Source of the DNA: Octopus vulgaris
Lineage: Eukaryota
Reading direction: 5' to 3'
DNA: 64,000 bases
Assembly: GCA_951406725.2 (NCBI GenBank)
Contig: OX597841.1
Location: 16,740,001-16,804,000, forward strand
A model generated the notes under the pieces. It made no database searches. It was not told where the DNA came from and saw nothing but the letters and a program-made list of their open reading frames with translations. The number at the start of each line of letters is the position of its first letter. Positions within the stretch are counted from its first letter, which is position 1. This document shows, one piece after another, positions 776-61,677 of the stretch. The position numbers and the translations under genes were made by a program.

Positions 776-1184
776 CAAAACTTCCCAACCCCCAAAACTG
801 TTATCGCCAGTTGGTAACCTTAGATTATCGCTGACGTAATAAAATAGCTTTTATACGTATAGTTGAAACGATTCCCTTAAACGACTTTAGAGGATAATAG
901 ATATATAGATAGCTAGAGAGACAGATATAGATATATAGATAGATATATAGGTAGATAGATAGATAGATAGACATGAATCGATAGATATTTGTTTATTATA
1001 CACAGTTTCTTGGTGTTTCTTCATCACCGTGCTTTTCTCTCTTTTTAGCCATCTGATGAATGTCTGACACCTGAAACGTTAAAGGATAATATTTCTGCAT
1101 TGAAATATTGACTAAAATGCGATAGTCGTCAAATGTCGTTCGTCCCATTGCGTTTATTTTAAAATTTCTTTTCTTTACGGCATA

Positions 1185-1348: not shown

Positions 1349-2000
1349 TGTGTGTGTGTGTGTGTATAAATGTATACATACACATCTAAATATATGTACA
1401 CATCTATGTGTATACACAAAGTATGTATTTGTGCGTATGTTCTCATATATGTGCAGATAAATATGCATGCAAATAAATATATATATATATACATAAACAT
1501 ATATATATACATAAATATATATATGTATATATGTATGAATTATGTAGGTATATGTACGTTTGGTAGAATATTTATAAATATACATAAAATAACAATCATG
1601 TATCAACGTTCATACATATATATATATATATATATGTGTGTGTATATAGATTTTATATATACATATATATATATCAATATGTATATAGATTTTATATATA
1701 TATATATATATCAATATGTATATAGATTTTATATATATATATATATATATATATCAATATGTATATAGATTTTATATATATATATATATATCAATATGTA
1801 TATAGATTTTATATATACATATATATATCAATATGTATATAGATTTTATATATACATATATATGTCAATATGTATATAGATTTTATATACATTCATATAT
1901 ATATATATATCAATCAATATGTATAGAGATTTTATATATACATATATATGTCTGTATACATACTCACATATATATACACTATATGTATGTATTTATATGT
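1185..2000. repeat. TA/TG microsatellite mosaic with compound unit GTATATAGATTTT(AT)nCAATAT at about 1640-1940
   Basis: Directly visible periodicity. Confidence 0.9.
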
Positions 2001-2069
2001 GTAGGAATGTCGGCGCATAGCGCACAGAATGACTCTTACATGAATAAAATCGGCGTTAGAAAATTACTA

Positions 2070-2302
2070 TCATTATTATTAGTAGCAGTAGCAGCAACGA
2101 CAGCAGCAGTACTAGTAGCAGTAGTAGTAGTAGTATTAGTAGTAGTGGTTTAGCATTAAGGTGGTGACGTTTTCTATTATTGATATGTACCTCATTTGTC
2201 TGCTAATTGACCGTAGCAACCTTGCGGCTGTTGTGGTGGTGGTTGTTGTGGCTAAGGTGGTAGTGTTGCTGGTGGTGACGTCTTTAGCGGTGGTGACGCT
2301 GC

Positions 2303-2339
<37 letters not shown>

Positions 2340-3940
2340 ATGTTGTTGTTTGGTGGTGGTGGTGGTGGTGGTGGTAGTGTTTTAGTTGGGTTTTTTTTTG
2401 TTGGTGGTGGGGGTGGTGACACCTTGGTTGTTGTTGTTGTTGTTGTTGTTTAGGTTGTAGTGTAGTTGGCGGTGGTGGAGGTGACGCTGCTGTAGTAGTA
2501 GTAGTAGTAATGGTGTTGTTTGGTGGTGGTGGTGGAGGTGGTAGTGTTTTAGTTGTTTTGTTTGTGTTGGTGGTGGTGGTGGTGACACCTTGGTTGTTGT
2601 TGTTGTTGTTGTTTAGGTTGTAGTGTAGTTGGCGGTGGTGGAGGTGACGGTGATGTTACTGGTTGTGGTGTTGGGGGGGGGGGGGTTGACGAAGGTGATG
2701 GCTGTGGTATTTGCCTTTCTGCTGTTTAGGCGGTAGTGGTGGTGGTGGTGGTGATGATGGTTGCGGTGGTAGTGATGGTAGTGGCGGTGGTTGCAGTGGT
2801 GATAATAGTTGTGATGGTAGTGGTGGTGGTATTGGTGGTGGTGAAGGTTGTTGTTTGTGGAGGTGGTTGTGATGGTAGTAGTTGTGACATGGTGGTGATG
2901 GTTGTAGAGTTGTTGATGGTAGAGTTTGTGGTGGTGATGGTTGTGGTGGTAGAGGTTGTAGTATTGCTGTGATGGTGATGTTAACCATCGAAGATTTGCT
3001 GCTTCTGTTGTAGGTGGTGGTTGTGGTGTTAATGGTATTGGGGTGTGGTAGTGGCAGTAGTTGTGTGGTGGTGGTGCTGGTATTGTTGTGTTTGTGCAGG
3101 TGGTAGTAGCGTTCGTGGTGGCGGTGGTAGCTGTAGTGGTAGAGTTAGTGGTGATGGTGGTAGTAGTTGTCGTGGTGATAGTTGTGGTGGTGTTAATGCT
3201 GGTGTTAATGCTTGTTGTGATAGTTGTGGTGATGGTGGTAGTTGTAGCGGTGATAGTGATGGTTGTGGTGGTGGTGATGTTAATGGTTGTGATAGTTGTG
3301 GTGGTGGTAGTTGTAACGGTGATAGTTGTGGTGATGGTTGTTGTAGTGGTGTTAATATTAATGGTTGTTGTTGTTGTGATGGTTGTGGTAGTTGTAGCGG
3401 TGATAGTTGTGGTGGTGGTGGTGGTAGTTGTAGCGGTGATAGTCGTGGTGGTGCTAATATTAATGGTGGTGGTGGTAGTGAGGATGGTGGCGATGGTGGT
3501 AATTAATGGCATTGGTGGTAGTACCGTTAATGTTCTTTTTTTGCAGTTTAGGTAGTAGTGGCCGCCATGCTGACGCTGATAATTGTTGTTGTTGTTGGTA
3601 GTAGTAGTGATTAAGGTAGTTCTGGTGGTGGTGGTGGTGGTATTATTCTTGGAAACGTTAGCTCCTTATCGTTTGTAAGAGTTGTGGTTGTTGTTATTGC
3701 TGTTGTTGTTGTTTTTGTAGTAATTATTGTTCTTCCTCTTCTTCGTGTAACTGCTGCAGTTGCTGCTGCTGCTGCTGTTGTTGTTGATGTTGTAGTTGTG
3801 GTTGTTGATGTTGTTGATTTATTTCCTGCTATTGTTTTTCTTTTTGTTGTTGTTATCGTCATAATCATAGACGCTAGCCTCAATGCAGTTGCTGTCGTGA
3901 GCGCTCCGGCTGTTGATCTCGTTATTGTTGTTGTTGTTAT
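2070..3940. repeat. Degenerate GGT/GTT/GTA/GAT triplet low-complexity block
   Basis: G/T-rich triplet runs; includes a duplicated segment of about 165 bp (about 2330-2480 vs 2495-2650). Confidence 0.9.
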
Positions 3941-3949
3941 TCCTGACTG

Positions 3950-3973
3950 CTCTCTCTCTCTCTCTCTCTCTCT

Positions 3974-4008
<35 letters not shown>

Positions 4009-4450
4009 ATTTGGCCTAAATTTGAGTTGACCTTCTCCGCCTTCCATTGCCCCACCCATGACCGTTATCCTCCCCTTCACTCTCACTTTCTTTCTTTTTC
4101 TTTCTTTCTTTCTTTTTCTCTCTATCCTTGTCGGTCTGATTCTCTCGCTTTCTCTGCCAGACTTTATCTCTCTATTTATATTTGTCTCTCTCCTCTTTCT
4201 CTTCTCTCTCCTCTTTCTCTTCTCTCTCCTCTTTCTCTTCTCTCTCCTCTTTCTCTACTCTCTCCTCTTTCTCTTCTCTCTCCTCTCTCTCTTTCACTTC
4301 CTCTTCTCTCTCTTCTTCCTCCTCTTCTCTCTCTTCTTCCTCCTCCTCTCTCTCCTCTTCCCTCTCTCTCTTTCCCTTCCCCCCTCTCTATCTTTCTCCT
4401 CCCCCTCTCTCTCTTTCTCGCTCTCCTCTCTCTCTCTCCCTTTCTCCCTG
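3950..4450. repeat. (CT)n / pyrimidine-rich tract with 18-bp unit CTCTCTCCTCTTTCTCTT
   Basis: About 5 tandem 18-mers at 4185-4285. Confidence 0.9.
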
Positions 4451-4668
4451 CGTCATTCTTTAACACAATATGAAAAAAACTTATAAACACATACATACAT
4501 ACATACATACATTTATACATTCATGTATATATACACATATATACTTATACACATATACACCCACAGACATACACATACGCAATCGAGAGTAGAGAAACGC
4601 AGATACAAATGTGTGCATTTGTTTATGTGTACGTGTGTATATGTAAATACATTTGTACGTATATATAA

Positions 4669-4709
<41 letters not shown>

Positions 4710-4747
4710 AATGTATCCATACACGCGCACATATATACGTACATTCT

Positions 4748-4780
<33 letters not shown>

Positions 4781-4785
4781 GAATG

Positions 4786-4814
<29 letters not shown>

Positions 4815-4816
<2 letters not shown>

Positions 4817-4983
4817 AGTTGGAATTTACCATAGACGAAGAGAAGTGTGTAAACAACAAACAGGTGTATCAGTGTAACGCTCGGGAAGGTGAGAAAGTGT
4901 TTTACGTTTCGAGCCTACGCTCTTCATCAGAATGGAACAGGGGAAAATAAACAGAGAAATAGAGCTTTGGTGGCTAGCGGTCG

Positions 4984-4987
<4 letters not shown>
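4815..4987 (-). mobile_element. Short hammerhead-bearing PLE-tail-like element, family H2
   Basis: Reverse complement contains CTGATGA-A-GAGC-GTAG-GCTC-GAAA-CGTA-AAA (4900-4934); homologous to 52400-52565 and 52888-53050; flanked by TA/TG repeats. Confidence 0.75.
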
Positions 4988-5034
<47 letters not shown>

Positions 5035-5037
<3 letters not shown>

Positions 5038-5189
5038 AGTTAGTTTTTTGGCTCAAAAAGCAAAAAGCAAGGCCATGTAGGGGGACATGGAGTTATGTAC
5101 AGGGAGGTGTTCATGTAAAGAGTTCAGGCCACTTGAGGTCAAGGGAGACTTTGAACCGAGCGGTCGTCGGCATCTTCACTATCTCGTCT
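5035..5189 (-). mobile_element. CR1-clade LINE extreme 3' fragment
   Basis: Near-identical to 48380-48540 (end of ORF2 plus 3' UTR and short-repeat tail). Confidence 0.8.
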
Positions 5190-5424
5190 TGAACATAATT
5201 TTTACTTGTACAAACATACGTGGGTACGTGTGTATCGGTGTATGAGTGGGATTATTCGTTCCAATCATCGAACAGACAACGTCCAGGCACCTCCTTATGT
5301 GTATATATATGTGTATATATATATATGTATGTGTGTATATGTTTGTGTCTATATGTATGCGTGTAGATGTAGGTATGTATATCTATATATCTATCTATTT
5401 CTATCTATCTATATCTGTCTATCT

Positions 5425-5945
5425 ATCCATCCATCCATCCACTCAGTCGAAGTCGACTCTAGGTTACTCGATGGATCAGTGTCCTCCAGTCAGTTCTATC
5501 CTGGGCCGCTTCCTTCAGACTGGCCATGTCCATTCCGGTATCACTCTTGATGGTGTCAAGCCAGCAGGTTCTTGGTCGTCCTCTTCCTCTCTTGCCACTG
5601 ACCATTCCGAGCATGATGTCCTTCTCCAGGGATTCTCTCCGCACAATATGACTGAAGTATGCCAATCTTTGCTTGGTGATCCTAGCTTCTAGCGACATTT
5701 TCGGCCTGATCTGCTTAAGAACTTCTCCATTGGTCGGCCTCTTCCTCTCTTGCCACTGACCATTCCGAGCATGATGTCCTTCTCCAGGGATTTTCTCTGC
5801 ATAATATGACCGAAATATGCCAATCTATGTTTGGTAATCCTAGCTTCTCGCGACAGTTTCGGCCTGATCTGCTTAAGAACTTCTCCGTTGTGAGCCTCGC
5901 TCTCCATGGAATCCGTAAGAGTCTTCTCCAACACCAAAGCCCTTC
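5425..5945 (-). mobile_element. RTE/BovB-like LINE 3' fragment with internal duplication of about 158 bp
   Basis: Translates LWCWRRLLRIPW...RLAYFGHIMQRKSLEKDIMLGMVSGKRGRGRP...WLDTIK...AAQDRTDWRTLIHRVT, the typical RTE ORF C-terminus; (TGGA)n tail. Confidence 0.9.
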
Positions 5946-6052
5946 GCCAACACCAAAGCCCTTCGCCAACACCAAAGCCCTTCGCCAACACCAAAGCCCT
6001 TCGCCAACACCAAAGCCCTTCGCCAACACCAAAGCCCTTCGCCAACACCAAA
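5925..6052. repeat. 19-bp minisatellite CCAACACCAAAGCCCTTCG, about 6.6 copies
   Basis: CCAACACCAAA recurs every 19 bp from 5928 to 6042. Confidence 0.95.
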
Positions 6053-6194
6053 CCAGTGCATGTAACTTATTGTTTTCGATTTTTTTTTTTATACCAGCAG
6101 CAATCAGATTCTTTCGCAGTTCCGTATCTGATAGAAAATCTTCTCCAGTGTTAGTATTGTTATCGATCATTTTAAGCTCTTTCTTAATATTGGC

Positions 6195-6690
6195 TTCTGA
6201 TTTTGGCACAACGCCAGCAAGTTCGGGATGGTGGTGGTGGTGGGGTGTTTAAACCGATTACATCAATCTCTGTTTTCAATCGGTACTTCTTGTATCGATC
6301 CTGAAAGAATGAAAGGCAGAGTCGACCTCAGCGGAATTTGAACTCAGAACGGAGAGTTGGAAGAAGGCACAAGTCCCGAAATTTGGGGGGAGGGGACCAG
6401 TCCATTAGATTGACCCCAGTACGAAACTGGTACTTAATTTATCAACCCTGAAAGGTTGAAAGGTAAAGTCGACCTCGACGGAATTTGAACTCAGAACGTA
6501 AAGACAGACGAAATACCTATTTCTTTACTACCCACAAGGGGCTAAACACAGAGGGGACAAACAAGGACAGACAAACGGATTAAGTCGATTACATCGAGCG
6601 CCAGTACTCAACTGGTACTTATTTCATCGACCCCGAAAGGATGAAAGGCAAACTCGACTTCGGTGGAATTTGAACTCGGAACGAACAGGT
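6195..6690 (-). mobile_element. SINE family B multimer, minus strand
   Basis: Three AAAGGATGAAAGGCAAAGTCGACCTCGGCGGAATTTGAACTCAGAACG-type cores. Confidence 0.85.
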
Positions 6691-6694
6691 TGGC

Positions 6695-7915
6695 GGCATT
6701 TCGTCCGTCCTTGCGTTCTGAGTTCAAATTCCGCTTGAGGTCAACTTTGTTTTGTATCCCTTTCGGGGTAGATGAAATAGTACCAGTCAGGCACTAAGGT
6801 TATGCAATCACCTTCCCTCCTCCTCCTCCGAACTTGCTGGCCTAGTGCCAACGCTTCGTTCTGAGTTCAAATTCCGTCGAATACGATGGCCGTGTGTCCA
6901 AATTTGAAAACAAATATTGCCTTTGAAACTGGACATGTTTTCCTTCCTCCTGCCCACCATGCAACAACAAAGCCTACAAGATGATGGCCAGACCATTTAA
7001 GTTGGTGCACGAAACTAGCGGTACAGGAATCTTATAATATCCAATTCGGGGTCGATAAATTAAGTACCAGTTTCGTGCTGGGGTCGATCTAGTTGACTGG
7101 CCCCCTCCCAAAAATTTTGGGACCTGGTGCTTAGTGTAGAAAAGATTGAAGGCGGCGAGCTGGCAGAATCGTTAGCACGCTGGGAGAAATGCTTAGCGGT
7201 ATTTCGTCTGCCGTTACGTTCTGAGTTCAAATTCCGCCGAGGTCGACTTTGCCTTTCATCCTTTCGGGGTCGATAATTTAAGGACCAGTTACGCACTGGG
7301 GTCGATATAATCGACTTAATCCGTTTGTCTGTCCTTGTTTGTCCCCTCTGTGTTTAGCCCCTTGTGGGTAGTAAAGAAAAAGTTATTTCGTCTGCCGTTA
7401 CGTTCTGAGTTCAAATTCTGCCGAGGTCAACTTTGCCTTTCATCCTTTGAGGGTCGTTTAAATAAGTACCAGTTACCCACTGGGGTCGATATAATCGACT
7501 TAATCCGTTTGTCTGTCCTTGTTTGTCCTCTCTGTATTTAGCCCCTTGTGGGTAGTAAAGAAATAGATATTTCGTCTGTCTTTACGTTCTGAGTTCAAAT
7601 TCCGCCGAGGTCGAGTTTGCCTTTTATCCTTTCGGGGTCGATAAATTAAGTACCAGTTACGCATGGGGTCGATGTAATCGACTTAATACCTATGTCTTTC
7701 CTTGTTTGTCCCCTTTGTGTTTAGCCCTTTGTGAGTAGTAAAGAAATAAGTATTTCGTCTGTCTTTACGTTCTGAGTTCAAATTCAGCCGAGGTCGAGTT
7801 TGCCTTTCAACCTTTCGGGGTTGATAAATTAAGTACCAGTTGCGGACCGGGGTCGATCTAGTCGACTGCCCCCCCTCCCCCAAAATCTCGGGGCCTTGTG
7901 CATTGAGTAGAAAAG
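6695..7915 (+). mobile_element. SINE family B cluster including a head at about 7151 followed by 4 tandem units of about 183 bp
   Basis: GGCGGCGAGCTGGCAGAATCGTTAGCAC head; GAGTTCAAATTCC B-box; repeated GCCTTTCATCCTTTCGGGGTCGATAAATTAAGTACCAG core. Confidence 0.9.
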
Positions 7916-8289
7916 AACATCTCATTCGACAGCAAAATGTCAAAATTTCACGTTCTTGTTTGTTTTTTTTTTTCTTTCGCAACGCCGCCGCATCCTTTAC
8001 TGCCCACAAATTTCGCCGGACCTTAGCCTTGCAATTCTTCAAAATCCTTCTCCAGCTTATCCCGTTCACGTCCTGGCACGGAACAAGAAATCAGCTCGGG
8101 AACTGCCACGTTCTTTTCTGCCAACAACATTGGCACAACTCCTTCGTTTTTCTGAAACTAGTTCCGGTGTTTTTCCTCGAATAAATCTCAACGGAAGAAG
8201 AAAGCGGCTTCATTGAGCTGTTTACTAAAACTTTCAAATAGATCACCGTCGGGATTTATATCGATCGCTTAAACTGCTTCTTGGTATAT

Positions 8290-8358
8290 TCTCTCTGTCT
8301 ATCGACTTGTCTATCAATTTTTATCTACTTACCTACCTGTCTTCTTTCTATGTGTTTA

Positions 8359-8426
<68 letters not shown>

Positions 8427-8516
8427 CCTGCCTTTCTATCTCTCTCCCCTCTTTCTCTCTCTCCGTCTATCCATCCTTCTATCTCGCTGTCTCTCACTCT
8501 CTATCTATCAGTCAAC

Positions 8517-8586
<70 letters not shown>

Positions 8587-8868
8587 GTCTTTCTATCAAT
8601 CTACCAGTCGATAGGTCTGTCTGATGTCTGTCTGTCTGTCTCTCTCTGTCTGTCTGTCTCTCTCTGTCTGTCTGTCTCTCTCTGTCTGTCTGTCTATCTC
8701 TGTCTCTGTCTATCTCTGTCTCTGTCTATCTCTGTCTCTGTCTATCTCTGTCTATCTGTCTGTCTCTGCCTATCTCCGTCTGTCTGTCTGCCTTCTCTGT
8801 CTCTGTCTGCCTTCTCTGTCTCTGTCTGCCTGTCTGTCTGTCTGCCTTCTCTGTCTCTGTCTGCCTTC

Positions 8869-8903
<35 letters not shown>

Positions 8904-8925
8904 AGCTCTACCTACCTACCTATCC
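8290..8925. repeat. (TATC)n/(TGTC)n/(TC)n microsatellite mosaic
   Basis: Directly visible. Confidence 0.95.
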
Positions 8926-9192
8926 AACATCCACATGCACATCGTGTACCCTGTCTAGTGAACAACTATACCGAGACGACATCGATCTAGCCACTCACCT
9001 TCTCTCGACCACCACCACTACACATCTTTCCACACTCCACACGAATACTAAAACACCATTCCCATCACAAATCATCCACGATTGGTTGGCGTCGTTTTTA
9101 TTTTATTCCTAAACCAAATCCATTGCGTTTGTGTCGTCTGCATGTACGGCGGCCATTTTTGATCATAACGTTGGTAGCGTTTGTGTCGATGT

Positions 9193-21852: not shown

Positions 21853-22059
21853 GAGAGGGGAGAGGGAGGTCTACATATATGTAGGGAGATATGTAGATAG
21901 ATGTCTGTGTGGTTGCGCGTTAGTAATATCGGATTACAGCCGGATATACACACACGCACACAAAATATGCACACACACATCACATATACATACACACACA
22001 CATATGTATGTATATATGCATTTTATGTTTGTATATGTAAAGATGTATATAAATCCATA

Positions 22060-27345
<5,286 letters not shown>

Positions 27346-28184
27346 TATGTTTGTGTGTCTTCTTTAGCTCTGCCAAAAGGCCTTTCTTTCTTCGCATCAG
27401 GCTAAACATATATATTCTCACAGAATTGCATTAAATATGCCAAATTCCTTTTTAACGAGCTTTGGAAACTCTTACAGACTTACCGGAATCAGATTCTTTA
27501 TGCAAGGTTAAAAAAACGAAAATCCGTTCCAGAAAATAGTTCCAGTACTTCGTTAACTTATACTTTTGTTCTCTTCCTCCCTCTCCTCCCCCTTTTTTTT
27601 TTTCTGTCTTTTATGCATATTCTACTTTCGAAATGTTTAATCTTCGCAATTTCCGTATGTTCTATTCAATAGTGATTTCCCTTGAGCTTTTGATCACGAT
27701 TATTCAAAGATCGAAAACTAGAGAATTTACGAAGTAACGAACGATTTGTAAAGTTTACAGTTTTCATATGAGTATACTATACAAGTAACTTAAAATCTGG
27801 GGGGTCAATTTGTTCGGCTAACACAACCTGTTCGCTGCTGCCCCACGCATATTTATACATACTGTTAAAAGCGGTGCTCCAGCATGGCTGCAGTCAAATG
27901 ACTGAAACGAGTAAAGAATAAAATATAGTTATATATATATCTACCCTTTTCTTCAATTATTTTATATTGTACCTGTATAGGTAGGAGTCTTGCAAGCCAC
28001 CTCATTATTACTGTTTAAAACAGTAATAATAACACATTTAAATTATATATATATATGAGAGATGTGTAGTTGTACAACAAGGCACCTATGTTTGCTGGAA
28101 ATAGCACGATAAATTTACGACGCCATAGTAAAGCATCACTGTGTTAATACTGTTTGTAGTGGATACTATATATAATTCATTGTT

Positions 28185-30784: not shown

Positions 30785-31225
30785 TATTCTTCTTCTTTCT
30801 TCTTTATGCCTTTAAAACCTTCCAACGCGGAGTATAGGCCACTTATAGTTCCTTTTGTGTTGATCTCCGCCACGAGTACTAAGGCCTACCTCTCCTTCTA
30901 TATCCAACCGGTTTCCACTTTAAAGCACTTTTCGCTACATTTGGTGTGCCTTTTCTAATTGTGCTACCAATCCACTTTTACTTAAATATTTGCTCCCAAA
31001 TCGAAACTTTATTTGTTCTTCGCCATAGCTCCATATTGCTTATGTGTTTGGGCCATCTAATTTTAAGTATACTACGCAAGCATCTGTTGATGAATGATTG
31101 TATTTGCTTATTTGACTTAACTGTTGTTCACCATGTCTCAGCCCCATACAATAACACCGCTTTTAGGTAAGTGGTAAACATTCTTATTTCGTTCTTTATT
31201 GAAATTACACTTGCGTTCCATACTT
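30785..31225 (-). mobile_element. Decayed RTE-clade LINE 3' fragment (second family)
   Basis: Manual translation KAVLLYGAETW*...IQSFINRCLRSILKIRWPKHISNMELWRRT...ALKWKPVGYRRRGRP with in-frame stops; (GAA)n-like tail. Confidence 0.8.
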
Positions 31226-31429
31226 TCTTTTCATACTATTAAAAAATAGTAATAAAAGATGTAATTCCTCTGCTTCTCTTTCAACATTTAAGTTTAGAGA
31301 GAATTTTTTGACGAGGTGTAGCTCCATTGCTTTCCGGAATTTTAGGGTCATCTGTTGAAGATCTATAAAAGAGAAAGATTTTGAACTTTCCTTCACCACA
31401 TATTCCCATATGTTCACTCAGTGGAATCT

Positions 31430-32145
31430 TGCGCAAATCCTCTTGTCGGATGTGTTGCCTGTGGATTCTTGCATGCTGGCAGAGGGAATTGTTTGTTTCG
31501 TCAATATAATTTTCCTTGTAGCTGTGGGCAAATAATGCAGTATCTGAGATTCTGCGTCTTACAGTTTATATCTACATTTATTTGAACGAAAATCCACGCT
31601 TGAATTTTATGTTGGAACCGCTTTGTTATTCCATGTTCCACATCTACCTCCACATTATTTTTGCAGAGAATTCTAATTAATTCTCTGATATGATTTTTCC
31701 TCTTGTGAGGTGTTTCTAAAGATTTTTTGGTTGGCGTCTACTGTTTCGTATGGGGTTCTTATCAACCGGATTTTTCATTTTGGGGCTTTGTAACAGTATA
31801 TCTAGATTTGATTTTATGTTGTGAAAGATGTTGGCTACCCCAGGTTTGTGCGTATTAATAAATGGAATCGTGTGTTCATTAATTTTTTTCCTTTCGTGTC
31901 CTTATTTGTGTAACGCTCAGCTTCATCGCCTTTTAAATTGCCTCTTTTATTAATCCTAAGGAGTAATTTTGGTTTAAGAAGTCTTTGAGCTCGTTGAGTC
32001 GGATTTGACGTATTTTGGGGTCAATCACCATAGTAGAGATAGGTCTTGCCATGCTGTATGGAATGTTTCTTTTGCTGTGTGAGGAATGGCAAGAGTAGAA
32101 ATTCAAATATTGGAGAGTCTCTGGTCTTTTGTAAAATATGTCTTT
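31430..32145 (-). mobile_element. Penelope-like element remnant (RT thumb, linker, start of GIY-YIG endonuclease), frameshifted
   Basis: DIFYKRPETLQYLNFYSCHSSHSKRNIPYSMARPISTMV resembles the PLE thumb motif (YxKPTxxxxYLxxxSxHPxxxKxxIP); downstream RQPKNL*KHLTRGK, KCGGRCGT and NLRYCIIC...HRQHIR fragments. Confidence 0.8.
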
Positions 32146-32182
32146 TGTGACTGACGTGTTGTGTATTGTTATGTGAATACAT

Positions 32183-32234: not shown

Positions 32235-32457
32235 GTCATTCAATATGTGACCGCGTGTGTATCGGTGGCGATTTTCTTTCTCCGTCTTCCCTTCCTTGGA
32301 CCTTTCCTTTTTCTATGTTTCTGACGAAGAGCTCAGCTTGAAACGTTAAATCCTCATCCTTTCTTTCCTTTCCTGAGCGTCCAATAACACTATACTTGTT
32401 CCACGTCCTCGCGTTGTTGTGTTTTTTCTTCGTGTTTTCATGTTTGGATTAACTTTA
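32235..32457 (+). mobile_element. Short hammerhead-bearing PLE-tail-like element, family H1
   Basis: GTTT-CTGACGA-A-GAGC-TCA-GCTT-GAAA-CGTT-AAAT at 32317-32351; ends GGATTAACTT next to a TA tract; homologous to 38812-39015, 52602-52792 and 54089-54288. Confidence 0.8.
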
Positions 32458-32478
32458 ATTATATATATGTATATATAT

Positions 32479-38497: not shown

Positions 38498-39015
38498 AAA
38501 ATTTATAAGTATAAGTTATTAATTTAAATAATTTTTAAAATTTTAACTATAAATTTTAAATTTAAATAATTTAAATTTTGAATTTTATATTTTATATATT
38601 TTTTATTAATTAATTTTATTTCTATGTATTGGTTTGTGATTTTCACTGTTTGATTTGCCTATTAGTGGTTTTATCTCTAATTTAATTTATAATTTATATA
38701 TTCATACTATAAAATTAGATTTAATCCTAAATCTCATTTTCCCCTGTCAGTTTGGATTTACTCCCTAATATTATTATTTTAAATTTATATATACATATAT
38801 ATTCCTTCCGGTCATTCAAAATGTGACCGCGTGTGTACCGTTGGCGATATTTTTTCCTCCGTCTTCTCTTCTCGGGATCTTTCCTTTCCCTATGTTTCTG
38901 ACGAAGAGCTCCGCTCGAAACGTCAAACCCTCCTTCTTCCTTTCCTTCCTGAGCGTCCTATAATACTATAATACTAACGTCCTCGCGTTATTGTGTTTTC
39001 AAGTTGGATTAACTT
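38490..39015 (+). mobile_element. Family H1 element (core 38812-39015) with a probable longer AT-rich upstream part
   Basis: Best-preserved hammerhead; ends GGATTAACTT(TA)n; assignment of the upstream AT-rich part is inference. Confidence 0.7.
38894..38928 (+). ncRNA. Minimal type I hammerhead ribozyme motif
   Basis: GTTT / CTGACGA / A / GAGC-TCC-GCTC / GAAA / CG TC / AAAC: complete catalytic core, stems I and II paired, palindromic loopless stem III, GUC cleavage triplet. Confidence 0.75.
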
Positions 39016-39066
<51 letters not shown>

Positions 39067-39416
39067 GACAGGCTTCTTTCAGTTTCCGCCTACCAAATTC
39101 ACTCACAAGGCTTTGGTCGGCCCGAGAGTATAGCAGACGACACTTGGTCATGTGGTTGGAAAGTAAGCTTTTTTAAGACAAGGAACTAGATTCCCTTAAG
39201 GGATCCAAGCATCCTAGCTCTCCGGTTGATGCCAGAGTTCAATGAAAACTAAAGTAATTTTATCACCGAAAACGTATAGGTAATAAAACTTTATGAAAGA
39301 GAAAAGGCAGAAAATGGATGAAATGAACTGAATGCAGAAATTTCTCTGCAAGAATTTGAATATCTTTAATTAAATAACATCTGTGAGTCACTTTTATCCA
39401 TTTTCTTTTCTCATTC

Positions 39417-51780: not shown

Positions 51781-52384
51781 AAAACCACATACACATGTCC
51801 ACAATTTTCGAGCACTTGATCCATCTTGATCGCTAAGGCAGATGAACCCGTGAGCGAAACATCGTTTCATCGTATTCTGTTTCAATATTTCTGCTCCTTT
51901 GACCTCCTTGTTCGTTTTGATGTTTCTTCTGAAGGCTTAAGTTTCCGTAAGACTCAAACCAAATAGCATTCCTTTCATTCGCAAAATATCGTTTCTTAGT
52001 TTTAATCTCTTTCGCTCCCCTAAAGGCACTTGGACTCCCTATCGATTTCACAAACGCACTAATCAATAAGCGCAGACCTGGCTGTGTGCTGGAAAGTTCT
52101 GTTTGCTACCGTGTCGTTTAGGGATCGATCTAATTGTGCGCTACTTTTGGCAAATGTTTTCTACAATAATCCCGGATCTACTAAAGCCTGGCGACGAGGA
52201 GGGAATTTGGTTGACGAAAACTAGGTTGAAGACCGTCGTGGCATGTTCGGGCGATAAGAAGTTTGCTTCTCAACGGTATTGTTCCAGGTTCAGTACCACA
52301 GCGTGTCACAATCGGCATTGTGTTTTTTTTTTATTAGCTGAAACTGAAAGAAGCTCGTCATGTATGTATATATGTTGATTCGCT

Positions 52385-52564
52385 AGCTTCTGCACGCATT
52401 TTTTTCTCTCCTTGTTTCTTTTCTGTGTACCTTTCTGTTGAAGAGCGTAGGCTCGAAACGTAAAAGACTTGTTTTATTTCTATTCCTGAGCGCCATACTA
52501 ATACAATTGTTTGTTTGTACTCCACCTGCCTTCGTCTTTTGTTTATTTTCATAAAGCTTCCCTT

Positions 52565-52565
<1 letters not shown>
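52385..52565 (+). mobile_element. Family H2 hammerhead-bearing element
   Basis: CTTT-CTGTTGA-A-GAGC-GTAG-GCTC-GAAA-CGTA-AAAG at 52431-52466; ends in (TA)n. Confidence 0.75.
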
Positions 52566-53050
<485 letters not shown>

Positions 53051-53102
53051 TTTGTGTATATATATATATATATATATATGTGTTTGTGTGTATAAATACA
53101 TG

Positions 53103-53652: not shown

Positions 53653-54088
53653 TTTAAGATTTAAACAAATACATTCTCTAACAGGCAAAAGCCACTGCGG
53701 TGAATTAGTTTCTGTAGTATTATTCCGGTATTTTAGCGAGCCAAAATGAGGACTTTTGAAAAATAACCACAAGTGTAATAGGTAGAACTATGTACACGCC
53801 CGACATCATGCGGACGTCTCGTGTATAGTTTTTCAAATTATTTTTGTAATGACGATCATACTGAAGATCTGCGGACAAATTTCGTTAGTAAAATCCCGTA
53901 ACTGTTAACAGTGAAACATGTATATGGTTAATCTATATTTATGTTACTTTTCATTTGTCTTGCTCGCTTATGTTCTAGTGTTTGCTAAATTTTCTTGAGA
54001 ACATTCTTTAGTGGTGAGATCATAGCGGATCTATTTCTAGCATAAGGGTTGTCCACATAATGGTCATCCATATCATATATATATATAT

Positions 54089-54288
54089 AGTCAATCCATA
54101 CAAAGAAGAAGCAAAGCAATAACGCCAGGACGTGGTACAAGTAGAGTATTATCAGACGCTCAGGAAAAGGAGCAATTAGGATTCAACGTTTCGAACCTTG
54201 ACCTTCTTCAGAAATAGAGGAAAGACCAAAGTAAGGGAAGACGGAGGAAGAAAATCGCCAACGATACACACTCGGTTACATTTTGAAA
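54089..54288 (-). mobile_element. Diverged family H1 element
   Basis: Reverse complement ATTT-CTGAAGA-AGGTCAAGGTTC-GAAA-CGTT-GAAT; flanks homologous to H1. Confidence 0.7.
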
Positions 54289-54291
54289 GTG

Positions 54292-59795: not shown

Positions 59796-60384
59796 AAGGA
59801 TGGTTTAAGGGCTGGATATGTGAAAGACTTTCTTAAGCTCATCTATTTTGAAAAAGCGTTGTTCTCATAGAGAACGTGTCGTCAAATCAACCTCTGCTCT
59901 AGCATTTTCTCTCAGGAAATATATTCCCTGTTTCTTACGCTTTCCGCAACGGAGATTACGATTTTGCGTTAAATAGCTAAACAAACGAATATATGAATAA
60001 AGAAAAGAAACAGTGATGCAATATGCTCGAAGCATTTATAAAGTGTAAGTGGTGTAAATGAAAACAAACCCCTGTTAGGAAAGCAGGTGAAAAGTTATAA
60101 AAATATTATGAGAATGCCAAGAAATGAAAGCAAAGAAAAATTTTTTTGTTTTATTTGATTGAGTTATTCATTGATCGTATAACATTTCGGAAACATAACC
60201 CTATCAATTACTAGTAAGAATGAATTCAAGATGTTACGTTTATGTATTTTACGAATAAACATAAGATGATGGTTTATGGGGTGTCTATTTACATGTTCTG
60301 TGCTGTGTGTGTGTGTGTGTGATTAGTCAAATGACTGGAACAGGTAAAAGAATATATATATATTGCTAAATCCACAAGTCATTT

Positions 60385-60490
60385 TTATATTCTCTCGTGT
60401 TCTTTCTTCGTGTTCCTTTCTGCTGGAGAGCGTAGGCTCGAAACGTAAAAGACTTTCTATCCTTCCGGAGCGTCAAACTAATACACCTCT
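60385..60490 (+). mobile_element. Partial family H2 element with degenerate hammerhead core
   Basis: CTTT-CTGCTGG-A-GAGC-GTAG-GCTC-GAAA-CGTA-AAAG. Confidence 0.7.
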
Positions 60491-60803
60491 TACGAGGCGG
60501 AAAAATTTGTCAACAAACACCTGTGGGACTGGAACCCTTATCCCCCAAGATTCCGGCTTGCAAGGATAATTTACGTAGTATTTCTGCTGCTCTAACGGCA
60601 ATTCTGTGCTCGAAAAAATATTTTCTCGTTTGTATCGTACAATACACGTTTCGACGATTATAAAATCAAATGTTAATTTGCTTATGTTTGTGTATTAAAC
60701 AGTCACATATAGACCCTGAAACATAACCCTATCAATTACTAAAATCTTTACGAGTTAGAATAAACATAAGATGATGGTTTATGGGGTGTCTATTTACTTC
60801 TGG

Positions 60804-61025: not shown

Positions 61026-61129
61026 GCTTTACTTAAAAGCATATTACTCTACCCCTGGTATTTGAGTACTCTCTTTTCCACATTTATGTTTCACATTTAT
61101 GTGTGTATATATATATATTGTTATATATA

Positions 61130-61460
61130 TTGTTATATTTCGGAATGGTCATTTTGCCAGTTTAGCCAATAAAAACACACGCACTATATATTTCGTGTTA
61201 TTTTGCTTCAGTGTTATTTATTTTTTACATTAATCTTAATCTTATTTCGGTCAGAGTTCTTTCGTCACACTCCTGTGACCTCATCAGTGGTCCTTTGTTT
61301 CGTTCTTTCTTATTTGTGTGTCTCTCCTTACTAACCGCCAGCCATTTGTATTTCTTTTAATGTAAAAAATAATATCACTGAAGCAAAATAACACCAAATA
61401 TATAGTGCGTGTGTTTTTATTGGCTAAACTGGCAATATGACCATTCCGAAATATAACAAT
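61130..61460. repeat. Inverted repeat (arms of about 100 bp, spacer of about 125 bp) enclosing a hammerhead-like motif
   Basis: TGTTATATTTCGGAATGGTCAT...TTTACATTAA vs TTAATGTAAA...ATGACCATTCCGAAATATAACA. Confidence 0.88.
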
Positions 61461-61677
61461 ATCTGTTTCAACACACGACTTCACATAAAAATTTCTTTTA
61501 TTCTTTTACTTGTTTGTCATTTGACTGCGGCCATGCTGGATCTATATATTTTTGCGCATGCGTTTATCCCTGCGCGCGCAGCTGGCTGTGTATAGCATTG
61601 TGTTAAAAACATTACAAATTCTTTACAGTTTTCTCTCGACCTATTCTAATGATACGGCATAGATCATTATCAAATAA

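Follow-up and report, generated by a model that had tools for sequence, protein, structure and literature searches.

A minimal type I hammerhead ribozyme (min-HHR) motif lies within a short repeat, H1, in the 64,000 nucleotides of Octopus vulgaris DNA that were analysed here and are referred to as the window. H1 and its sister family H2 are, in our estimation, probably solo pseudo-LTRs (pLTRs) of endonuclease-bearing, Neptune-like Penelope-like elements (PLEs). The Neptune-like clade is assigned by analogy, because the flanks of H1 could not be aligned beyond the hammerhead to a coral-type family which we recovered from metagenomes. Both families represent an abundant octopus example of a motif type that has already been described and do not reveal a new kind of system; the minor novelties are a U4C lineage that is large in each of two distant animals and, downstream of the hammerhead, an invariant motif whose sequence complements stem II.

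Structure and conservation of the hammerhead motif

The motif at 38894-38928 comprises a stem I of 4 bp (38894-38897 pairing with 38925-38928), the core C3-A9 at 38898-38904 with an extra A at 38905, a stem II of 4 bp with a 3-nt loop (38906-38916) and GAAA at 38917-38920. Helix III has no loop and is made up of C15.2-G16.2 and A15.1-U16.1, which together give the complete palindrome ACGU (38920-38923); this palindrome was found in all eight H1 and H2 copies. Stems, core, extra A and loopless ACGU agree in every point with the original prediction for this site. N17 is C38924 and the predicted cut lies 3' of 38924. The CUGANGA core, the GAAA and the NUH of PLE min-HHRs are all present, as is their additional nucleotide between A9 and G10.1 (A38905). 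The pair G10.1-C11.1 is G-C in 12 of 13 aligned motifs, which include five metagenome loci chosen on stem II, and G-U in the remaining one. The capped helix III and the loop 1-loop 2 contacts of canonical type I hammerheads were not found in H1, which has no loop 3 and a helix I of 4 bp.

An RNAMotif-type search, which had been proposed as a check, was carried out with a relaxed min-HHR descriptor and gave five matches in the window versus a mean of 0.01 (maximum 1) in 100 block-wise dinucleotide shuffles. With a plain hammerhead pattern two matches were obtained, where 0.02 were expected. Further CTGANGA..GAAA matches at 673, 19181, 19738, 37741, 48522 and 58395 failed the descriptor and were treated as chance. 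The hammerhead models of Rfam, which is without a model for the min-HHR variant found here, gave no match at the gathering threshold and none at E<=10 on 38700-39100. Up to 10 hammerhead motifs can be counted in the 64 kb, of which five pass the descriptor and the other five have core or stem damage; A6 is altered in three of the four H2 copies and stem II is broken in one H1 copy.

Conservation of the core in excess of the flanks, which the original prediction had set as its test, was observed at both levels of comparison. Within H1 the core is 95.5% identical versus 84% and 79% for the flanks, between H1 and H2 88.6% versus 40% and 49%, and 8 of 11 gap-free core columns versus 15 of 68 gap-free flank columns are invariant (Fisher p=0.0017); these eight related copies were found via the core and the contigs described below were placed at 80% likeness or more, so that both samples are biased toward core conservation. 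In stem I, two-sided changes occur in three of four pairs across families and 75% of the stem I cells are paired in 13 sequences, namely the eight H1/H2 copies and five metagenome motifs. Stem II is nearly invariant and therefore gives no covariation signal.

Runs of four coded organisms contain parts of the stretch, none of them more than 0.41 of its words. For a family-wide view, Logan contigs of four runs were placed on 38700-39016 at 80% likeness. The numbers placed on the element, 10665, 9709, 6315 and 3203, bear out the high abundance that had been claimed. Contig depth is maximal on the hammerhead, at 2-18 times that of the 5' flank bin 38832-38842, and does not represent a copy number; low cover past 38975 reflects deletions in the 38811-39016 copy and carries no evidence. 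Considering depth-weighted variants that reach at least 4% in at least one of the four runs, U4C makes up 36-48% of contig depth, C7U 2-7% and G16.2A 2-4%, and the stem I positions 38894, 38926 and 38928 are changed in 1-4%, 1-11% and 9-14%, respectively. The other core positions and stem II are free of variants at this level. At N17, U accounts for 78-90% of depth and A for 3-6%; the GUC cut site originally predicted is correct for the copy at 38894-38928, but it belongs to a minority of the family.

We rejected CpG decay as the source of U4 and C4. The other CpG sites in the motif vary only by 2-7% or by less than 4%, and C4 in the coral-type family goes together with a diagnostic further downstream, present in 25 of 32 C4 versus 0 of 21 U4 loci. 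The available parts of three reports describe U4C as a natural core variant with retained cleavage, unaffected in one paper and much reduced in vitro in another (PMC9608096; bioRxiv 2026.09.16.752053; PMC3088659), so its abundance would be as compatible with a weak function that is still retained as with a relaxed one. For GUU, no rate is given in the accessible portion of PMC1636495.

At 22-30 nt downstream of the cut lies TTCC-N-GAGC, which could base-pair with the 3' strand of stem II and surpasses the core in conservation, with 100% identity in H1 and 94% between families. The helix which it can form as an alternative to stem II has a computed probability of 0.70 in the 38811-39016 copy, of 0.95 and 0.44 in two H2 copies and of 0 in four others; it is hence dominant in two of seven folded copies, partial in one and absent in four. 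A switch role is hence only a hypothesis, and a protein-binding site is as likely.

Copies, boundaries and insertion sites

The elements and associated features are compiled in Table 1.

Table 1. Hammerhead-bearing elements and associated features of the window.
Feature	Position	Strand	Particulars	Basis
Minimal type I hammerhead (min-HHR)	38894-38928	+		Sequence, structural descriptor, motif alignment
H1 element, putative solo pLTR	38811..39016	+	Reference copy	Microsatellite on both sides; 5' loose ends (TA)n
H1 copy	32235..32458	+	U17, G10.1-U11.1 wobble; hammerhead 32317-32351	BLAST/nhmmer, descriptor
H1 copy	52603..52792	-	U4C and U17; hammerhead 52692-52726; nested in microsatellite between two H2 copies	
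H1 copy, divergent	54088..54290	-	U17, U-U mismatch in stem II; hammerhead 54181-54215	
H2 copy	4815..4986	-	Core intact, A17	nhmmer/BLAST, descriptor
H2 copy	52376..52566	+	A6U	nhmmer/BLAST, descriptor
H2 copy	52888..53056	-	A6U; tail to tail with 52376-52566	nhmmer/BLAST, descriptor
H2 copy, partial	60370..60495	+	Core damaged	BLAST/nhmmer
Initiator-like TCATTC, putative promoter element	38812..38817	+	A at 38814	Sequence; 5' boundary 38813/38814; pLTR analogy
TTCC-N-GAGC motif	38946..38954	+	Unchanged in 8/8 H1/H2 copies except N	
Decayed, 5'-truncated PLE ORF	31290..32178	-	RT thumb, linker, GIY-YIG; context only	Protein matches

BLAST and nhmmer searches within the window yielded four H1 copies of 190-224 bp, which are 73-88% identical, and H2 is about 51-57% identical to H1. 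The homologues predicted at 32317 (+), 52692 (-) and 54181 (-) were found at these positions, but not all of them are intact. The description as an ORF-less element of about 200-230 bp holds for the length and for the lack of an RT or endonuclease ORF, but one copy has a 40-codon frame. Frames of 40-46 codons, running from an ATG just before stem I to the 3' end of the element, are located at 52609-52728 (-) and 32315-32454 (+). Between these two copies the frame survives two indels, with a single stop inside it at 32315, whereas the 38892 copy has it disrupted; a longer homologue of the 40-aa frame was not found in a word-index protein search. The exact H1 pattern had no match in metagenome contigs.

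The copies are dispersed, and neither a tandem nor a head-to-head inverted arrangement among H1 copies occurs in the 64-kb window. The tail-to-tail H2 pair at 52376-53056 encloses an H1 copy within microsatellite, and three min-HHRs (54211, 53014 and 52722) share one strand within 1.5 kb. A hammerhead-like motif at 1053-1080 (+) has the ACGU end, an irregular stem II and no BLAST alignment to the flanks of H1 or H2. The window, which is repeat-rich, also holds a 5.3-kb (TA)-rich satellite with a period of about 26 bp and strong strand asymmetry (22002-27350). A CR1-like fragment in it shows 89% identity to a protein labelled Octopus vulgaris in one source, the single candidate compared; the label has an odd locus name, so this match serves as a lead.

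Dinucleotide microsatellite borders all four H1 copies and two of the four H2 copies on both sides, versus 0.3% of random segments and two of eight SINE copies. The depth profiles of four runs and the listed loose ends of three place the 5' boundary at 38813-38814, directly after (TA)n; other loose ends inside the element are H1-like, among the best-supported ones listed. Three of the four window copies begin within a few bases of one another, and two have three bases in common upstream of the proposed +1. The TCATTC at the boundary is initiator-like. In the seven full-length H1/H2 copies, 88-111 nt separate the cut from the 3' end.

A length of about 200 bp, an internal hammerhead and a fixed 3' end are characteristic of pLTRs and are found in H1, as is the bias toward microsatellite or AT-rich insertion sites of Neptune-like pLTRs; a (TA)n bias has been reported for Neptune/Naiad PLEs (bioRxiv 2021.04.23.441226, accessible part). 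The optional 30-40-nt tail of pLTRs was seen only in the coral-type family. As to a possible pLTR intron, GTRA at 38822 and pyrimidine tracts are present, no GT..AG joint was seen among the contig joints listed, and the invariant G preceding the downstream AG is atypical of acceptors.

Relationship to Penelope-like elements

Min-HHRs in the pLTRs of metazoan PLEs, molluscs included, were described by Cervera and De la Pena (2014; PMC4209133, accessible part), mostly as single dispersed motifs without activity as monomers and with low activity as dimers. H1 shares with them the type I topology, the nucleotide between 9 and 10.1, the G10.1-C11.1 pair, the loopless palindromic 15.2-16.2, a short helix I, a U-rich 5' flank, U, C or A as N17 and the predominance of single dispersed motifs. 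Its core, stem II and ACGU are nearly letter-identical to the Neptune motif of Acropora digitifera. Unlike Lottia and Crassostrea, the octopus host of H1 is not among the molluscs in the accessible part of that paper's alignment. The U4C lineage of about 40% would escape the CUGANGA descriptor, whereas the accessible part of the paper reports only a U3-A8 variant, and a density of up to 10 motifs per 64 kb would, if genome-wide, exceed the 2,000-9,000 per genome quoted there.

The solo pLTRs of endonuclease-bearing PLEs (Arkhipova et al., 2013; PMC3846280, accessible part), for which lengths of 193-218 bp, Inr-like motifs and cis-sufficiency are described, resemble H1 in their size of about 200 bp, the Inr-like 5' end and the internal hammerhead. 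In H1, by contrast, no 30-40-nt optional tail is resolved and solo copies appear dominant. An internal promoter has been shown for Penelope of D. virilis (PMC2377424, accessible part).

A connection to PLE genes came from a metagenome scan in which only stem II and GAAACGT were specified and C3-N7 left free. In 31 of 64 parts it returned at least 120 loci; 40 of the 120 listed had flanks of only 300 bases. C[CT]GA is found upstream in 71 of 97 low-GC versus 0 of 23 high-GC loci, among the loci listed. Within the set of at least 120 loci, a PLE RT/GIY-YIG gene lies upstream of the motif on the same strand in L007 and L044 and in inverted orientation in L014. The protein of L007 carries a C-x4-C-x2-C linker, a type which marks the Neptune/Nematis clades (bioRxiv 2021.04.23.441226; PMC3846280, accessible parts).

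The coral-type family was set by its 3' flank alone and comprises at least 81 loci, 71 after duplicate removal; position 4 is C in 38, T in 31 and G in two of the 71 listed. Its motif equals the published min-HHR of the A. digitifera Neptune pLTR except for one stem II base, and its 3' end lies mainly about 65 nt beyond the cut, an extension being optional. By eye, the coral-type terminal repeats often come with a 5' copy in inverted orientation, and one base of stem II then distinguishes it from the forward copy (for instance in L013, L026, L049 and L062), hinting at two different templates in one insertion. The proposed origin of H1 from a PLE terminal repeat is upheld by the full set of min-HHR traits and by the near-identical motif found, in DNA of other animals, downstream of Neptune-type RT-EN genes.

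The window itself contains a Neptune-like PLE relic. It shows about 50% identity in the RT thumb to proteins composed of RT, C-x4-C-x2-C linker and GIY-YIG domain, the linker being unreadable in the relic itself, and both named proteins among 10 PLE homologues examined come from bivalves. The RT piece found no match in the word-index protein search, and Pfam gave only one match, to a DUF and below threshold, for four pieces of the relic. The relic lies head to head with the H1 copy at 32235-32458 across (CA)n(TA)n. We rejected this copy as an inverted pLTR of the relic, whose 3' region is without similarity to H1 or H2, and attribute the adjacency to shared microsatellite targeting. A LINE-like 3' fragment at about 30790-31240 (-), presumably RTE-like, has an 11-bp direct repeat at its ends and is inserted just past the relic's endonuclease.

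In addition, the window holds a head-to-head inverted, hammerhead-bearing unit at 61127-61462, a structure typical of PLE insertions. Inverted repeats of 107 bp, 96% identical, enclose a minus-strand motif that resembles a hammerhead (C3 at 61287), with a 6-bp stem II, a 4-nt insert in helix III and a weak stem I.

Proposed mobilization and alternative readings

If H1 is a solo pLTR, its RNA would begin near the initiator-like 5' end, with an autonomous PLE or an already present solo copy as its source, and the RT-GIY-YIG protein of the PLE would bind it. After a nick by the endonuclease in AT-rich or (TA)n DNA, reverse transcription would start within the uncleaved RNA, about 90-110 nt beyond the hammerhead cut, and proceed to the RNA 5' end. 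The outcome would be an insert of fixed length with the cut site inside. H1 would accordingly span the stretch between the putative starts of transcription and of reverse transcription, copied into (TA)n. PAc, the one reconstituted PLE, offers a parallel (Frangieh et al., 2024; PMC11167929, accessible part): its endonuclease cuts AT-rich DNA, and its reverse transcription has an internal start at 111-118 nt of an ORF in which the hammerhead cut falls at 26, by arithmetic 85-92 nt past the cut. Uncleaved RNA serves as template there, mutation of the hammerhead leaves insertion normal, and no RNA ends were seen at the cut site; cleavage by the hammerhead requires added protein. H1 is like PAc in its AT-rich targets and in ending about 90-110 nt downstream of the cut.

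The hammerhead itself would be inherited pLTR equipment, kept by selection in master lineages but subject to decay in the majority of copies. The monomer would be inactive, lacking a helix III and with the core paired to its own ACGU end; the predicted monomer MFE structure sequesters the core (-9.9 vs -3.8 kcal/mol). Slow cleavage 3' of N17 would be expected only as a dimer via the ACGU palindrome, and probably only with PLE protein. The double-hammerhead dimer fold was calculated at -5.9 versus -24.5 kcal/mol for the inactive cofold, and enforcing the dimer hammerhead in natural same-strand H2-H1 neighbours costs about 17 kcal/mol, in energies which ignore tertiary contacts; according to these models, unaided H1 dimers would be energetically disfavoured. 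The predicted dimer-dependence fits the literature.

One alternative, which we regard as possible but unlikely, is that H1 forms an independent, SINE-like non-autonomous family descended from a pLTR, with solo copies as masters and the PLE protein borrowed. A TATA box ahead of the internal initiator may then come from the (TA)n target. Such a family would account for the fixed 5' boundary after (TA)n and the closely coinciding starts of the window copies, and for U4 and C4 subfamilies at frequencies far above the neighbouring CpG-type changes (2-7%). It would also suit a result that counts against the preferred solo-pLTR reading, namely that no H1 copy is joined to an RT-GIY-YIG ORF, either in the window or among the best-supported loose ends listed. 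However, short cDNAs on the 5' pLTR of full-length PLE RNA predict a fixed 5' end equally well, and the three bases shared by two copies upstream of +1 would be lost from a +1 transcript.

A more far-reaching version, to which we give little credence, takes H1 as a self-propagating SINE-like solo-pLTR family of roughly 10^5 copies in octopods and its hammerhead as a protein-gated switch. TTCC-N-GAGC would hold stem II shut until the PLE protein binds, and core misfolding would be relieved in the U4C and U17 lineages. With a motif about every 6-7 kb, neighbours on the same strand that belong to different families and have ACGU in common could heterodimerise and cut host pre-mRNAs when PLE protein is expressed.

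The original prediction had called the family retrozyme-like, meaning here that dimeric self-cleavage excises H1, a circle forms and is then reinserted, with a (UA)n circle that could prime on (TA)n. We judge this improbable, and the term did not find support. The palindromic helix III would permit dimers, for which published min-HHRs show low activity (PMC4209133), a pLTR ancestry has been argued for animal retrozymes (bioRxiv 10.64898/2026.07.22.740005, accessible part), and the three min-HHRs on one strand would suit it. Non-LTR retrozymes (Cervera and de la Pena, 2020; PMC7229834, accessible part) are likewise short animal elements that lack ORFs, carry a type I hammerhead and have a proposed PLE ancestry, but they form head-to-tail arrays with canonical efficient hammerheads and proven circRNA, whereas H1 is dispersed, minimal and microsatellite-flanked. 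None of the four H1 copies in the window is tandem, and the unit ends are not at the cut site, which lies mid-unit. No joint leading from the 3' end back to the 5' end of the unit was seen among the listed contig ends, a weak argument with the last 45 nt or so almost uncovered. The dimer energies given above and the normal insertion of PAc hammerhead mutants, without RNA ends at the cut site, stand against it as well.

That the hammerhead resemblance is incidental and the repeat an unrelated SINE/MITE fragment is hardly credible: the lack of an Rfam match, a whole-element fold no better than shuffles (z = -0.86) and a near-invariant stem II without covariation would allow it, but the shuffle controls, a core conserved across families of about 50% identity, the near-identity to the published Neptune pLTR min-HHR and the C[CT]GA preference of the listed low-GC loci oppose it.

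We retain the solo-pLTR reading as the preferred one. PLEs account for 6.83% of the O. vulgaris assembly (PMC13282606, supplement), and the words "ribozyme" and "hammerhead" are absent from the accessible annotation of that work and from PMC8967140. Among the literature listings consulted, none was of a paper describing octopus min-HHR elements or U4C in PLE hammerheads, though Lunse et al. (2017) may cover both. If the preferred reading is true, part of the octopus Penelope DNA consists of ribozyme-bearing solo pLTRs. The share of U4C in H1 and in 38 of 71 listed coral-type loci suggests that censuses which require CUGA miss a large share of these motifs. The H1 family represents a naturally occurring, large-scale mutational scan of a minimal hammerhead, and it could be used to test the purpose of PLE hammerheads, be it dimer cleavage, protein-assisted cleavage or neither.
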